Shown in pieces: positions 3,787 to 22,912 of a stretch of DNA of 27,882 bases. Position 1 is the stretch's first letter; each line of letters begins with the position of its first letter. The notes under the pieces were generated by a model. That model did not search any database and was not told the origin of the DNA. It saw only the letters and a list, made by a program, of their open reading frames with translations. Position numbers and translations under genes: made by a program. Source of the DNA: a virus (taxonomy: Duplodnaviria > Caudoviricetes); the IMG/VR virus record IMGVR_UViG_3300042868_005222, positions 1-27,882 of that record; one strand, written 5' to 3'.

Positions 3787-4224
3787 TCAGGATCGCTCAA
3801 GCTGCGCTTGGACCTTGCGCCAGTAGCCAACGGTCGCCTGCTTGCGATGGCCGCGCGGGCCGCCGTTGTGGACGCGGGAGAGCCGTTCCCAATCCTTGTC
3901 CGCCACGGCCTGCTGGCAATAGCGCAGCATGTAGGCGACCACCACGCGCTCCGCGTAGACGCGGTCGGTCACGTCCTGGTAGACGGCATCGCGCAGCGCC
4001 GGGCAGACCTGGCAGGCGTCCGACCAGTAGATCTCCCAGATCTGGAAGCGGCCAATCGCCTTGCCGCCGTCGCCGACGGCCTGGTCATCGGCCGAGCTCT
4101 CGACCATGGCCACGGCGTCGAGCCACGGGCGCAGCTCGCGGCGCGCAGCGTCAACGTCGCGCAGGCGGATCTGGGCAGACAGGACAGAGCAGAGGAGCAG
4201 GACCAACGAGAGAGTGCGTAGCAT
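3787..4224 (-). CDS. Lysozyme-like endolysin (i-type/destabilase-like) with N-terminal signal peptide
   Basis: Motifs AMVES, GDGGKAIGRFQIWEIYWSDA and SRVHNGGPRG. N-terminus MLRTLSLVLLLCSVLSA. ATG at 4224 preferred over TTG at 4230. Confidence 0.8.
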   Translation of the reverse strand: MLRTLSLVLLLCSVLSAQIRLRDVDAARRELRPWLDAVAMVESSADDQAVGDGGKAIGRFQIWEIYWSDACQVCPALRDAVYQDVTDRVYAERVVVAYMLRYCQQAVADKDWERLSRVHNGGPRGHRKQATVGYWRKVQAQLERS

Positions 4225-9137: not shown

Positions 9138-9544
9138 GCATTCCAGGCACCGTCGCGTTCATCGAGCGCGGCGTGCGTAACGGGTTGGCAGAACATCTCG
9201 CGGTCGTGCGCGAACGCCTCGAACGCAGAGACGGCGACAGTGCGAGCGGACCCGGCAAGAGCCAGCAGTTCCTCGCGGCGCTTGGGCGTGCATGCCTCGG
9301 CCTCGGCCTGCTTGCGGCAGGCGCGCTCCAAAACGTAGCACCAGCCCGCACGGTCCAGGGTCTCGTCGAGGATCTCGCGGACGATCACGTCAACGTCGCG
9401 GTCGAACGACGCGTTGCCGTATTCGAGCTCGCCGACGGCAAGCCGCTTGGCCACGCCGTCGAGGAACAACGCAGACGCTTTGTGGTGGCGGACGCTGCGT
9501 GTCAGTTGCAGCATCCATGCGTCACGGTCGATGTGCTCCGTCAC
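9134..9544 (-). CDS. Helical hypothetical protein, possibly MazG-like (all-alpha NTP pyrophosphatase)
   Basis: GTGA overlap with the upstream stop and ATGA overlap with TerS. RLAVGELEYG...EILDETLD resembles the RxxxGxxKYG...ExxEExxD pattern of phage MazG-like proteins. Confidence 0.55.
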   Translation of the reverse strand: MTEHIDRDAWMLQLTRSVRHHKASALFLDGVAKRLAVGELEYGNASFDRDVDVIVREILDETLDRAGWCYVLERACRKQAEAEACTPKRREELLALAGSARTVAVSAFEAFAHDREMFCQPVTHAALDERDGAWNA

Positions 9545-11430
9545 AGAGCCCTCCACCGTGCGTCGTTGATGCGCTGCGCAGGCGGGAACGAAGTCAGCAC
9601 GAAGTGCGCCTGCTGGTTGATCTCGGCGATCATCACGGCCGACGCCATCGACCACGACTGGCAGGCGGGCGAGACGTAGATGAACGAGGTCCAGCCTTCG
9701 CCCGCCGAGTTGACCGAGGTCGGCCAGGCCCCAGTGCCGAGCACGTCGCCTTCCATCCACCGCACCGCGTATGCGTGCCTGCGGGTTGCGAGGTCGAAGC
9801 ACTGTGTCACGACCGTCTGCGCAAGCCTCATGGCGCTGTTGATCATCTCGCCGTCGCGCAGTTGCTTGCCGAGCGCGAGCAGGCCGATGGCCGCGATGGT
9901 CTCCTGCCACGACTGCCAGCCGATGACCGGCTGACCGTTGGCGTCCGACCACCCATACTTCGCCTGCTCGCGGCCGCCGATGGTGCGGATCTCGCGGTCG
10001 GGCGGCAGCGTCGAGAGCGGGCTGTTGACGATCGCCCGCTGCGCGCACGTGCGTGCGACTTGCGTGGCGCCCGTGAATCCGAGCCAGATCTGGTTGGCGC
10101 GTGTCAATGCCATGCGCCCGACGGATCGAGGCGACGGCACCATGGGCTGCTGGTAGTAGACGTCCAGCTTGTCCAGCTCGATGTGGTCGAGGATAAGCTG
10201 TTCGAGCGCGGGGTCGCGCGTCAGCGCGTAGGTCGCGTGCAGGAAGTTGTCGCTGCGGTGCTGGTCATCGGCCGCCGTCCACAGCGTGGTTGCTGGCGAC
10301 GGCATCCAGCCAATCTGGTTGACGCCAGGCCATCCCAGGCGGTCTTCGACGCCGTAGGCCAGGTCCACGCGCTGGTTGTAGATCGTGGCCTTGGGATGCA
10401 GCTCGGCGCGCATCGGTGCGCCACCTGGCTCTCTGTTGCCCGTTGGGCGCAGCGCGAAGGACTGGCACTGCCACAGCGCGTCGTGGATCTCCCACGGGTC
10501 ACCGGTCGTGACGGCCAGGTCGGACGCGCATCCGAAGTCGGGCTGGTCGCCCGTCGTTCCAGTCTCGCGCGGTTGGCAACGCGGGCGCATGTCGAGCATG
10601 GAGCCGCGGCCAAAGTTGTATTGCTGCCACTGCGTCTCGCGGACCTGCGGCAGATCGGGAGTTGCTTCGACGATCTTGCCGAGCGCCATCCACTTGTCGG
10701 CCCAGCCCATGTAGAGCGCGGACAGCGGCGCATCGCGGCGGGCGACATCGTCGAACGGCAGCAGCACGCCGCGGGACTCCCAGCGCGCAGCTCGGTGAGC
10801 TCGGCCAGCCGGGCGGATCACGCCTCGCCACGTCGGCAGGTTGGAAAACTGCTGCGCCTGCTCCTGGCCGTTGCGCTTGGCGAAGTCGAAGTGGATGCGG
10901 GCGCGCGAAGTCATCGTGACCTCGGGCAGATCGACCGCCTGCGCCTGGCCGTTGTTCTCCGTCGTGCCGTAGACCACCTGCGTCGTGAACTCGACCGATG
11001 CCATGCCCGACGAGACCGTCAGCCAGCAATCGACGGTCACCTTCTCGGCGGCCCAGTGGTCGCGGATGCGCCAGACGATCGCGGCCGGCGAGGAGCGCAC
11101 GAGGTCGAGGCTCGACGTTGTCGGCCCGGCGCCTGCGAGCTTGAACTGCGGCAGGATGGCAAGCGCGTTGTCTGCGAGGATCGGATGCCAGACGAAGGCA
11201 TCGAGCTTGCGCGGCTCGTCCGACCAGGAGCACTTGATCGTGCTTGAGGCAGGCACCGACGCGAGCACGCGGACTCCGTGCGGCTCGCGGACCCATGGCA
11301 TGCTGCTCTGCTCGGTGGCGAGCCAGCCTGCCTCGGCCTCGGGCATGTCCACAGCGGGCAGGCCGACGAAGACCCACCCATGTTGCGGCAATGCCGAGAT
11401 GTTCTGGATGCGGACGGGCGCGTTGGTCAT
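9541..11430 (-). CDS. 629-aa hypothetical protein, putative beta-sandwich plus alpha/alpha-barrel carbohydrate-active enzyme-like
   Basis: TGATG coupling at 11430. Trp-rich, with a beta-like N-half and helical C-half containing TGDQPDFG, DDQH, YALTRDP, PRSVGR and WQSWQE. The CDS is solid but the function is tentative. Confidence 0.6.
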   Translation of the reverse strand: MTNAPVRIQNISALPQHGWVFVGLPAVDMPEAEAGWLATEQSSMPWVREPHGVRVLASVPASSTIKCSWSDEPRKLDAFVWHPILADNALAILPQFKLAGAGPTTSSLDLVRSSPAAIVWRIRDHWAAEKVTVDCWLTVSSGMASVEFTTQVVYGTTENNGQAQAVDLPEVTMTSRARIHFDFAKRNGQEQAQQFSNLPTWRGVIRPAGRAHRAARWESRGVLLPFDDVARRDAPLSALYMGWADKWMALGKIVEATPDLPQVRETQWQQYNFGRGSMLDMRPRCQPRETGTTGDQPDFGCASDLAVTTGDPWEIHDALWQCQSFALRPTGNREPGGAPMRAELHPKATIYNQRVDLAYGVEDRLGWPGVNQIGWMPSPATTLWTAADDQHRSDNFLHATYALTRDPALEQLILDHIELDKLDVYYQQPMVPSPRSVGRMALTRANQIWLGFTGATQVARTCAQRAIVNSPLSTLPPDREIRTIGGREQAKYGWSDANGQPVIGWQSWQETIAAIGLLALGKQLRDGEMINSAMRLAQTVVTQCFDLATRRHAYAVRWMEGDVLGTGAWPTSVNSAGEGWTSFIYVSPACQSWSMASAVMIAEINQQAHFVLTSFPPAQRINDARWRAL

Positions 11431-11822
11431 CAGTTCAACGTCCTCAGCAAGATGCAGCACTTGATGCCGCTTGCGGATGCACCAGCTCCAGCTAAGACGC
11501 GAACTCGGATGAAGTAGGTCGGCTGAACTGCAGCTTGTCCCGATGCGTTTGAAGTGAAATCCCCAATAAATCCAATGGCAGAGGCCGCCCCAACAGTCAG
11601 CGAGGTGGCGTCTGGCGGATACATGGCTCCCCAGTTCGTCCCATCCAACGATCCTTCGATCAAGATGGTGTCGGTTCCGGTGTTGCCAGACATGACCTGA
11701 GCGACAATGCGCTTGGCAGGCGTGACATTGATCGCCGCACAGGTGTCGGTTCGCGCCAATGACGAGTAGGTGTAGAGCGTGTCGCCAGGAGCGACTTCAG
11801 AAACGGTGAATGTGGTTGCCAT
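11430..11822 (-). CDS. Hypothetical beta-rich protein, possibly virion-associated
   Basis: 130 aa, Thr/Ala/Ser/Gly-rich, with IEGSLDGTNW and YFIRVRV. Strong GGAGG SD. Confidence 0.7.
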   Translation of the reverse strand: MATTFTVSEVAPGDTLYTYSSLARTDTCAAINVTPAKRIVAQVMSGNTGTDTILIEGSLDGTNWGAMYPPDATSLTVGAASAIGFIGDFTSNASGQAAVQPTYFIRVRVLAGAGASASGIKCCILLRTLN

Positions 11823-20916: not shown

Positions 20917-21173
20917 TACTGACCGGCGTCGCCGTCCAGTGGGTAGATATCCACCATGCGCTGCCACTCGCCATAGACGTCAAGCAGCGCGGCCGCGTCG
21001 AGCTGCGCCGCGAACAGGAAGACCTGCGCGAGCGCGTCCTCGAGGCGGTCCATCTTCGCTCGCTCTTCAGCGGGAGCGAGAGATTCGACGCCGAGGCCGC
21101 GGACCATTGCCAGATACTGCTCGCGGATGCGCTGCACTTCGGCCTGGATGTTTGTCCTTCTCTGGTCCGCCAT
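20916..21173 (-). CDS. Hypothetical helical protein (85 aa)
   Basis: Protein-like composition. Overlaps the phosphoesterase C-terminal tail by 107 nt. Confidence 0.65.
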   Translation of the reverse strand: MADQRRTNIQAEVQRIREQYLAMVRGLGVESLAPAEERAKMDRLEDALAQVFLFAAQLDAAALLDVYGEWQRMVDIYPLDGDAGQ

Positions 21174-22098
21174 GGTTCACCGCTTGGTAGATGCGCCCGT
21201 CAACTAACAGCCTGCCGTCGTGGATGTGGTGCTGGCGGATCGAGACGGCGCCGTCCGTCTCTTCGATGCAGGAGAAGCCCTGCTGCCAGTCGGGGTCGTG
21301 CGTCCAGTCGGGGTCTGGGTCCGACAGGTGCCCGTTCTCAACTCCCCAGTGCACGCCGTTGCGGTCAGTGCGCGCCACGATGCCCATGCGGTGAGTATGG
21401 CCCATGGCGACTGAGCCGCCGCGCCTGGTCATGTGACCACGCACGGAGTTGCCAGCGTCCTTGCGGATGATGCTGCCGTGGAAGATCTCGAACGGCGGGA
21501 CAGTGAGCTTGCACCGCTGGTCGATGAACTCGATGCCCAACGCTTGCAGGTCCAGCAGCTCGTCGAGCGCGAGGCTCGTCACGCTGGACAGCTCGGGCGC
21601 ATGCTGCGTCAGATACCGCTCCAAGCGGTGCTCGTGGTTGCCCATCGTGTAGTAGATGCGCGCCTTCTTGTGATCGTGGCGCAGCACGCGCAGAAACTGT
21701 CGGGCTTCGTTGATCTCGTCCTGGAATGTGATCGGGTTGTGCTTGTCCTTTGGGTGCGACGAGATCTCTTGCGCGTCTAGGATGTCGCCGTTGAGCACGA
21801 TGACGGTCGGATTCCAGTCGCGCGCGAACTCCAGCGCGATGGCCAGCGCGGCCTGGTCGTGGTAGGGGATGTGGATGTCGGACAGGATCAGGCAGCGGTT
21901 GGACGAGACCGGCTTGGCCTGCACCGTATGCAAGCGGACTTGCACTTGGTCACGCTTGATGACGAGCCGCGTCACCTCGCTGCGCATGACGCATCGAACG
22001 CGCCACTCGGTGACGCCTAACTCTCGGGCGACAGACTTTTGCGATTGCCCGCAAGTTACTCGAGCACGGATTAGTTCTTCGAGCTCGGCGCGTTCCAT
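21067..22098 (-). CDS. Calcineurin-like metallophosphoesterase with N-terminal HTH
   Basis: SDIH, NGDILD, GNHE, FHG and GHTH motifs. N-terminal SQKSVARELGVTEWRVR. Strong AAGGAGAGG SD. Confidence 0.9.
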   Translation of the reverse strand: MERAELEELIRARVTCGQSQKSVARELGVTEWRVRCVMRSEVTRLVIKRDQVQVRLHTVQAKPVSSNRCLILSDIHIPYHDQAALAIALEFARDWNPTVIVLNGDILDAQEISSHPKDKHNPITFQDEINEARQFLRVLRHDHKKARIYYTMGNHEHRLERYLTQHAPELSSVTSLALDELLDLQALGIEFIDQRCKLTVPPFEIFHGSIIRKDAGNSVRGHMTRRGGSVAMGHTHRMGIVARTDRNGVHWGVENGHLSDPDPDWTHDPDWQQGFSCIEETDGAVSIRQHHIHDGRLLVDGRIYQAVNHGGPEKDKHPGRSAAHPRAVSGNGPRPRRRISRSR

Positions 22099-22108
22099 GT
22101 CCTCTCCT

Positions 22109-22291
22109 TCAGATCCCCAACAGCAGGAGCGTGGACTCCACGTCTTGCCATATAGCCCACAGCAACTTCTCGACGGTCAACCAGAACTCCTCTGGAGCCT
22201 CGACCAGCGCCTGCGTTGTCGCGCACGCGCTGAAAAGCACGAGAGCAGCCACTGCGGCTGCCCTCGCTGCGTCACGCCCTGGGCGTTTCAC
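22109..22291 (-). CDS. Small lipoprotein (60 aa; o-spanin-like position)
   Basis: GTG at 22291 with AAGGA upstream. MKRPGRDAARAAAVAALVLFSA|C lipobox. Overlaps the preceding gene by 20 nt. Confidence 0.6.
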   Translation of the reverse strand: MKRPGRDAARAAAVAALVLFSACATTQALVEAPEEFWLTVEKLLWAIWQDVESTLLLLGI

Positions 22292-22670
22292 GGATGCGAT
22301 CCTTGAGGCCGTCAAGCTGCTCGTAGATCGCAGCCGTGTTGGCGCGTCGCTTGGCATTGGTCGAGACCGCGTAACCGCCGATGCCGAAGATGGCGAGGAG
22401 CTGCATGACCAGCCCATACCACTCCTCAAGGCCCGCCACCTTGCCGTCGCCGTTCTTGTCGGCTTCAGCGACTGCGGCCCGCACCTCGGCTGCCTTGTCC
22501 GCGAGCTTCTGGCCCTGTTCGCCCATGTTGCGTAGCCCGGCCTCGACGCCGGTCAGCGCCTTCTCGGCTTCCTTAGTGGCCAGGTCAACGCGGTCGATGG
22601 CGTCGTTGAGCTTGGTGTAGACGCCGCAGCTCGTCAGCAGCAGCAACGACAAGATCCATGGGTGTCGCAT
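22272..22670 (-). CDS. Lipoprotein with coiled coil, EF-hand-like loop and C-proximal TM segment (u-spanin-like)
   Basis: TGATG coupling. MRHPWILSLLLLTS|C15, DKNGDGKVAGLE loop, and WYGLVMQLLAIFGIGGYAVS followed by KRR. Confidence 0.7.
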   Translation of the reverse strand: MRHPWILSLLLLTSCGVYTKLNDAIDRVDLATKEAEKALTGVEAGLRNMGEQGQKLADKAAEVRAAVAEADKNGDGKVAGLEEWYGLVMQLLAIFGIGGYAVSTNAKRRANTAAIYEQLDGLKDRIRETPRA

Positions 22671-22912
22671 CACTTGACCTCGGGCACGTTCAGACTGGGG
22701 TTGCGATCGGCCAAGCCCTGCGAGAAGGCTTGCAGCCGTTTGAAGTTGGCGTCCTCGCGCGTCTCGATCCACTGCCGCAGGTTGGTCACCGCAAACTCAA
22801 CTTGCAGCAGCCGCGACTGGATCATCAGCGCACCGCCGACGATCGACATGATGACCGACAGCGGGACCACCGCGTCGCGCAGGTTAATCTGGCTACGTTC
22901 GTCGGAAGCCAT
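22670..22912 (-). CDS. Single-TM membrane protein, holin candidate
   Basis: 80 aa with hydrophobic AVVPLSVIMSIVGGALMI then a coiled coil. Located at the end of the tail module. Confidence 0.55.
   Translation of the reverse strand: MASDERSQINLRDAVVPLSVIMSIVGGALMIQSRLLQVEFAVTNLRQWIETREDANFKRLQAFSQGLADRNPSLNVPEVK

Follow-up and report, generated by a model that had tools for sequence, protein, structure and literature searches.

A strictly paired two-lipoprotein module with an EF-hand-type loop in environmental tailed phages as a candidate spanin-like device

Genes and features at the locus

The window, i.e., the entire stretch of 27,882 nucleotides considered here, is a 27.9-kb tailed-phage record that is approximately 51% complete. 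It carries terminase, portal, and capsid genes, a GTA-like tail gene, and replication genes, all of them on the minus strand. The tail genes are followed by three small genes, g80, g132, and g60, and these in turn by a metallophosphoesterase gene. The features are as follows:

22670-22912, minus strand: g80, 80 aa, a hydrophobic stretch (aa 13-31) followed by a coil; swappable neighbor outside the core pair
22272-22670, minus strand: g132, 132 aa, predicted lipoprotein composed of a coil, a single EF-hand loop, a hydrophobic segment, and a basic tail
22626-22670, minus strand: signal peptide and lipobox of g132 (LTSC, Cys15, Gly at position +2)
22461-22625, minus strand: heptad coil of g132 (aa 16-70, eight heptads)
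22422-22460, minus strand: EF-hand-type loop of g132 (aa 71-83, DKNGDGKVAGLEE), a 13-residue variant with one residue more than calmodulin
22353-22421, minus strand: Gly-rich hydrophobic segment of g132 (aa 84-106), a likely but marginal transmembrane helix
22275-22352, minus strand: basic helical C-terminal tail of g132 (aa 107-132, 26 aa, KRR at 107-109), predicted to be cytoplasmic
22109-22291, minus strand: g60, predicted lipoprotein with GTG start, AAGGA upstream, and FSAC with Cys23; 38-aa mature acidic amphipathic peptide
within 22109-22291, minus strand: mature g60 motif C-A-T...A-P-x-E-F-W...A...D, a sequence pattern
3787-4224, minus strand: destabilase-family lysozyme, candidate endolysin (PF05497, 38.6 bits versus a cut-off of 26.2; signal-like N-terminus)

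The stop codon of g80 and the start codon of g132 share 1 nt, and g60, located in the +1 frame, overlaps g132 by 20 nt. All three reading frames, including this overlap, were found as stated in the original prediction. In comparison with locus L002, synonymous/non-synonymous divergence amounts to 0.194/0.036 for g80, 0.186/0.010 for g132, and 0.186/0.023 for g60; the three are real, conserved genes under purifying selection. Among the datasets listed, DNA matches to the window stem mostly from lake and freshwater metagenomes, and one freshwater contig spans 21970-23200 with 53 substitutions and no gap. None of the listed datasets with the window sequence was an RNA dataset, a single RNA-labelled run being probably DNA. 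A scan for promoter-like sites found none, and terminator-like sites occur at chance level.

Searches of Pfam, PHROG, and NCBIfam gave no significant match for any of the three proteins, and g132 is without a match among 50,697 GenBank phages. The closest terminases in GenBank share only 37-43% identity. Matches in the Atlas comprise unnamed clusters only. The assignments of lipidation and transmembrane segments given throughout are based on sequence patterns, i.e., the lipobox pattern and Kyte-Doolittle hydropathy. Two further observations concern the surroundings of the three genes. A helix-turn-helix domain fused to the metallophosphoesterase (window 21067-22098) directly follows the pair of g132 and g60 and does so in 7 of 19 loci, with unrelated genes taking its place elsewhere. 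Upstream of the terminase genes, a 639-aa protein (window 9541-11460) is without a Pfam, PHROG, or NCBIfam match.

The g132 family and its EF-hand-type loop

A direct search returned 85 relatives of g132 from 179 candidates (56-99% identity), with the loop being intact in all 85. A 47-sequence alignment, 41 entries of which derive from 46 profile-search matches, extends the family to identities down to 22%. Excluded from it were three long proteins with repeated short matches (P0094, which was inspected, P0112, and P0120) as well as P0118 and P0128, apparently frameshifted fragments that diverge ahead of the loop. The alignment has just three invariant columns: the lipobox Cys, Asp1 of the loop, and its last Glu. 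The protein g132 founds a previously undescribed phage protein family. Pattern scans gave eight matches in a genome collection, none belonging to the g132 family, and zero matches in 151 genomes of one bacterial phylum, neither of which shows absence from cells.

The predicted lipobox with Cys15 was confirmed at the level of the pattern, the Cys being present in 47/47 members. Position +2 is never Asp, a pattern-based outer-membrane lipoprotein signal; the +2 Asp sorting rule is that of E. coli. A second Cys is found in none of the 47 mature sequences. The long coiled coil of the original prediction likewise stands, as 88% of the heptad a/d positions within residues 15-70 are hydrophobic. The spacer between the lipobox Cys and Asp1 varies from 28 to 73 residues across the family and is a multiple of seven in 24 of 41 members (close members counted once), with all seven multiples from 28 to 70 represented (Fisher p 0.0006). 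These heptad-step lengths therefore argue for a coiled coil with its register held from lipid to loop. The periplasmic part of g132 would comprise 69 residues, corresponding to ~23 nm when extended, and the coil as a helix to ~8 nm. In 11 of the 47 members, the distance from Cys to loop end is below 60 residues (minimum 40), and a coil of 28 residues as a helix would span ~4 nm.

A transmembrane segment followed by KRR had also been claimed. The KRR is in place at 107-109; the segment itself is marginal, its best 19-residue Kyte-Doolittle value being 1.54 in g132 (family median 1.46, minimum 0.26) and only 12 of 47 members reaching at least 1.6. An uncharged run of at least 15 residues is found there in 33/47 members, net positive charge follows in 39/47, and the segment is the best-conserved region among close members. 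A first AlphaFold model of g132 was helical (pLDDT 56) and without a viral fold match at E 0.001. A better monomer model (pLDDT 72, pTM 0.55) is helical to ~70% including the tail, with helices at 37-56 and 67-80 and a short strand at loop positions 7-8. It has no significant match in the PDB (best VIA Z 7.8, with generic helical bundles); the non-significant top rows of Foldseek are S100 and troponin C.

In the loop, D1 and N/D3 are kept in 47/47 members, D5 in 43, and G6 as well as V/I/L/F8 in 41 each. The last Glu is kept in all 47, at position 13 in 33 including g132 and at the canonical position 12 in 14. A near-canonical EF-hand loop had been predicted, of which D1-N3-D5-G6-V8 holds. The claimed E12 is off by one, because the invariant Glu is that of position 13: among 61 close members, Glu13 is found in every one and position 12 is variable (35 E, 19 D, 3 N, 3 S, 1 G). 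In agreement with this, the match of the family profile to calmodulin contains a gap of one residue ahead of the Glu. The spacing to the last ligand also varies in other Dx[DN]xDG folds described in PMC3123361. Compared with the calmodulin EF-hand as presented in the same source, g132 shares the helix-loop-helix arrangement, D1, N/D3, D5, G6, the hydrophobic position 8, and the final Glu; it differs in being a single motif, in the extra residue before the Glu in 33/47 members, and in an exit helix that is at the same time the putative membrane segment.

By chance, the loop pattern arises in 42 of 100,000 shuffles of g132, and translation of the window in all six frames yields it once. Profile searches partly build in the retention of the loop; the scan for the g60 motif (see below) served as a loop-independent check, and the loop is intact on 16 of the 16 contigs it found. 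Conservation within the family is highest at the ligand residues, so that the loop is likely to bind metal. Calcium would be at least as likely to act as a structural element as to modulate activity, and we give a role in timing about one chance in four.

Lone loops of the calcium type also abound in phage amidases. A control scan with the 12-residue loop pattern returned 120 loci (L031-L150), 118 of which are amidase-type phage endolysins, with the lone EF-like loop located directly after a GHRD motif. Calcium activation of the T5 endolysin has been published according to a title cited in PMC13510199. In the same context, two small phage proteins (L062, L139) have both a lone EF-like loop and a hydrophobic segment but no lipobox. 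Three large, apparently cellular proteins (L162, L168, L187) carry the 13-residue loop variant with Gly10 and Glu-Trp at 13-14.

Pairing with g60 and the exchangeable neighbor

Mature g60 is amphipathic, with a length of 37-40 residues in all but one of 17 sequences (46 residues in the exception) and a net charge of -3 to -5 in all 17. None of the mature sequences has a Cys beyond that of the lipobox, and one Pro-x-x-Phe-Trp element is conserved. The helix had been described as Trp-rich, which is true for the window copy with its three Trp; across the 17 sequences the number ranges from one to four and only W15 (mature numbering) is conserved. A search of the PDB with the g60 profile found no sequence.

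Genes of the g132 family are present on 17 IMG/VR contigs. When IMG/VR was scanned independently for the g60 motif, 16 contigs were returned, all of them within these 17, and the remaining contig has a divergent partner; a partner lipoprotein gene is thus found in 17/17. Because close relatives make up 13 of the 17, this corresponds to about five independent lineages. In 19 of 19 loci, g60 follows g132 with a frame shift of 1 or 2, one distant locus having an intervening ORF. Four distant phages keep the order of the pair in different places, i.e., before the terminase gene, just before the portal gene (two cases), and after the tail genes. In two metagenome loci, L189 and L190, the sequence stops 0 and 200 nt past the g132 homologue, and the partner motif is absent from that remainder. 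On this distribution, g132 and g60 form a conserved, strictly paired module across distant phages.

The gene upstream of the pair behaves differently. With one hydrophobic segment (Kyte-Doolittle 1.99), g80 has the shape of the holin-like protein originally proposed and is without a holin-family match in Pfam, PHROG, or NCBIfam. It is present in only 5 of 13 close loci, the other eight having a non-homologous membrane-plus-coil gene instead, and in the g132 tree a clade made up of its carriers is rejected (p-AU 2.5e-5). One of the replacement genes has a weak XhlA match (E 0.0014). A small membrane-plus-coil gene adjoins the pair in the close loci read and in three of four distant phages and is ~1 kb off in the fourth; in the three, the layout is opposite to g80 with the coil first and a C-terminal transmembrane segment. 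As the upstream gene is swapped between unrelated types, the core consists of the two lipoproteins only. The three-gene cassette initially postulated is thereby reduced to one conserved two-gene unit with g80 outside it, and the upstream gene is probably an exchangeable holin-type component, holin-like by shape only.

The same data bear on the question of whether the locus is an ordinary two-component spanin that has been misread, with g80 being the i-spanin and g132 or g60 the o-spanin. The type II shape of g80 and its position directly upstream of a lipoprotein gene agree with the rule given in PMC12894885. Its replacement in 8/13 close loci, the rejection of its carriers as a clade, and the opposite layout of the neighbor in the three distant phages speak against it, as does the lack of a periplasmic Cys in mature g132 (0/47) and mature g60 (0/17), unlike most two-component spanins. 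We consider this explanation very improbable.

A possible spanin-like device and its alternatives

Anatomy, conservation, obligate pairing, and the heptad-wise linker can be read from the sequences directly. Taken together with the gene context, they suggest that g132 and g60 may work jointly as a spanin-like device of inverted two-component design, a reading to which we assign a probability of roughly 0.48. With no Asp at +2, the lipid of g132 would reside in the outer membrane, and its C-terminal hydrophobic segment would be placed in the inner membrane, the basic tail being cytoplasmic. The coil may zip into a bundle and draw both membranes together. The amphipathic g60 would be a membrane-deforming helix that likely destabilizes the outer membrane and completes fusion. 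Calcium would most likely stiffen the elbow that joins the coil to the membrane helix, a role in timing being possible but less likely. For this device, we infer lipidation, outer-membrane sorting, membrane crossing, oligomerization, contact between g132 and g60, and calcium binding, and its lysis role from topology and context.

Several properties are in line with this device. The genes g132 and g60 are laid out like overlapped or separated two-component spanins, mature g60 with its 37-46 aa is close in length to Rz1 with 40 aa (PMC6139136), and the 69-residue periplasmic part of g132 is within the range of 60-149 covered by 54 u-spanin rows of the same survey. Against it stand the 11/47 short linkers, which are below every one of the 54 u-spanin rows compared, the weakness of the hydrophobic segment in many members together with its apparent burial in the monomer model, the separate u-spanin-like gene in two of the genomes, and the lack of an adjacent endolysin in the window. 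In terms of homology, the best PHROG matches to ‘Rz-like spanin’ (E 0.0015 for 4/47 and E 0.0028 for 2/47) are not significant and consistent with a generic coil. Considering that spanins are very diverse, a lack of homology does not exclude a spanin.

A comparison with known systems reveals likenesses to both spanin classes. The survey catalogues 58 u-spanins in 13 families, including T1 gp11 and the PB1 family (PMC6139136). They share with g132 the N-terminal lipobox, a hydrophobic segment near the C-terminus, the lack of a periplasmic Cys, and a length range that includes g132. The original prediction had regarded helicity as a departure from this class, which does not hold: 11 of the 54 rows of Table S2c in PMC6139136 have ~40% helix and at most 7% strand, so that the beta-rich domain, a trait of the T1 family absent from g132, is not a class-wide requirement, and PB1-type members are helix-rich as is g132. 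What separates g132 from the u-spanins is the absence of sequence similarity, a near-continuous heptad coil with ~70% helix in the model versus at most 43% in the rows compared, and its EF-hand loop, 26-aa basic tail, and obligate second lipoprotein. With lambda Rz/Rz1 and P2 LysB/LysC, the pair has in common adjacent genes in different frames and a coiled-coil subunit followed by a lipoprotein of ~40 mature residues. In contrast to these, the coil subunit g132 is itself a lipoprotein with a C-terminal instead of an N-terminal membrane segment, the pair is without a disulfide Cys, and g60 is an acidic amphipathic helix with one Pro and not Pro-rich. The disruptin phiKT gp28 (bioRxiv 10.1101/515445) resembles g60 in being a short amphipathic helix for which the outer membrane is the proposed target; according to that report, it is cationic (+7) and without an export signal, whereas mature g60 is acidic (-3 to -5) and its precursor has a lipobox. 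The spanins of phiCbK are described as an ordinary overlapped pair (PMC3556154). A literature search, with most subscription journals outside its coverage, returned no EF-hand spanin and no account of the g132-g60 pair. The pair would function most like a spanin, yet by the features tested it is a member of neither spanin class, in accordance with the original view that the cassette fits neither textbook type. New is the combination of lipid-anchored heptad coil, EF-hand elbow, C-terminal membrane segment with tail, and obligate second lipoprotein.

The marginal, Gly-rich hydrophobic segment and some very short linkers would also suit a different arrangement, in which both lipids are located in one membrane and a soluble bundle keeps the hydrophobic helix of g132 buried until calcium or g60 frees it to permeabilize the membrane without bridging the periplasm. 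The AlphaFold monomer model indeed seems to pack the segment against the N-terminal helices as a bundle (matched range 13-83). In addition, the EF-hand has this segment as its exit helix, and calcium-driven exposure of this helix is usual EF-hand behavior. The basic cluster directly after the segment (39/47) rather suits a stop-transfer anchor, the bundle is impossible for members with a 28-residue linker, and monomer models of oligomeric coils often collapse. We regard this arrangement as distinctly unlikely.

Further evidence comes from the genomes themselves. Eight related records were read whole with a simple gene caller. The pair provides the only credible lipoproteins in G001, G002, G003, G004, and G008, three of which have terminal repeats, and its genes are co-oriented with the late genes and packed among them, beside holin-like genes. 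A separate family of lipoprotein-coil-transmembrane proteins is encoded at 57249-57812 of G006 (L217:19249-19812, minus strand) and 34939-35568 of G007 (L228:6939-7568, minus strand). These proteins of 187 and 209 aa share 45% identity over 84 aa and have a long coil and a strong C-terminal transmembrane segment; they are u-spanin-like in topology and have no family match. Their presence weakens the claim of the pair as the spanin in these two genomes.

This observation is in favor of the pair being a lysis-timing or envelope-bracing module and not a fusogen, with an Lpp-like coil and calcium loop holding the envelope or restraining the holin until release. Two g132 relatives have weak Lpp/OprI (NF040598) matches (E 0.00056 and 0.013, far below cut-off), and the heptad length steps of g132 resemble heptad insertions in Lpp that altered membrane distance (PMC5736177). 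The alanine-zipper lipoproteins Lpp/OprI share with g132 a lipid-anchored heptad coil starting from the Cys and a commonest length of 56 residues; unlike these, g132 is phage-encoded and continues into EF-hand loop, hydrophobic segment, and tail. Extra lysis regulators are moreover documented, e.g., phiKZ gp143 (PMC12894885) and Lcc6 (bioRxiv 2024.01.23.576932). However, swapping of the holin-like neighbor with the pair nearly unchanged is a poor fit to a holin-specific partner, and a timing or bracing role would leave five genomes without a lipoprotein spanin. We consider such a module unlikely.

The destabilase lysozyme of the window lies 18 kb from the pair between head genes, with no endolysin being adjacent to the pair, and has only one weak match among GenBank phages. 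It was found in 4 of 10 relatives searched, and in 5 of 19 loci, which belong to a single clade, its distance downstream of the pair is 0.9-1.4 kb. The complete genomes G006 and G008 (both with terminal repeats) yielded no endolysin family among 73 of 138 and 45 of 64 called genes, respectively, i.e., those of at least 100 aa, plus one added stretch in G008; unrecognized endolysin enzymes are possible in both. Besides, G008 harbors glycosyltransferase-like and methyltransferase genes between its portal and head morphogenesis genes (35674-39508; L221:6674-10508, minus strand).

Endolysins that are often non-adjacent or not found, together with the lack of homology to lysis proteins, would also be compatible with a pair that has no lysis role at all, e.g., one serving superinfection exclusion, receptor masking, or another change of the host envelope, and phage lipoproteins with exclusion roles do exist. 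The co-orientation of the pair with the late genes, among which it is packed, and its retention across unrelated morphogenesis modules beside a holin-like neighbor render such a role decidedly improbable.

Regarding the host, for which the Planctomycetota or Verrucomicrobiota would be conceivable candidates, a lipoprotein of G007 (28401-28757; L227:14401-14757, plus strand, opposite to the late genes) has a weak BamE match (E 0.00013). Together with the Lpp/OprI matches, it indirectly hints at a host with two membranes. In its boldest form, the spanin-like reading would describe a third spanin architecture, a calcium-gated dual-lipoprotein fusogen made of coil, EF-hand elbow, inner-membrane helix, and amphipathic lipopeptide. 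As two complete genomes with the pair show no recognizable endolysin, it may even be the main lysis machine for low-peptidoglycan hosts. We hold this extension to be quite unlikely.

According to the survey, ~13% of the phages of two-membrane hosts covered have no identifiable spanin, and an inner-membrane protein with a C-terminal anchor or an inner-membrane lipoprotein is named as a possible, unsearched form of the i-spanin (PMC6139136). The pair of g132 and g60 is a concrete two-gene candidate for this gap of unsearched anchor topologies. Should the spanin-like reading be false, a strictly paired and still unexplained envelope module of unrelated environmental phages would be left. If true, bacterial membrane fusion would gain a minimal design that includes a metal site, and the natural spread of linker lengths in the family (28 to 73 residues) would serve to examine how linker length matches the width of the periplasm.
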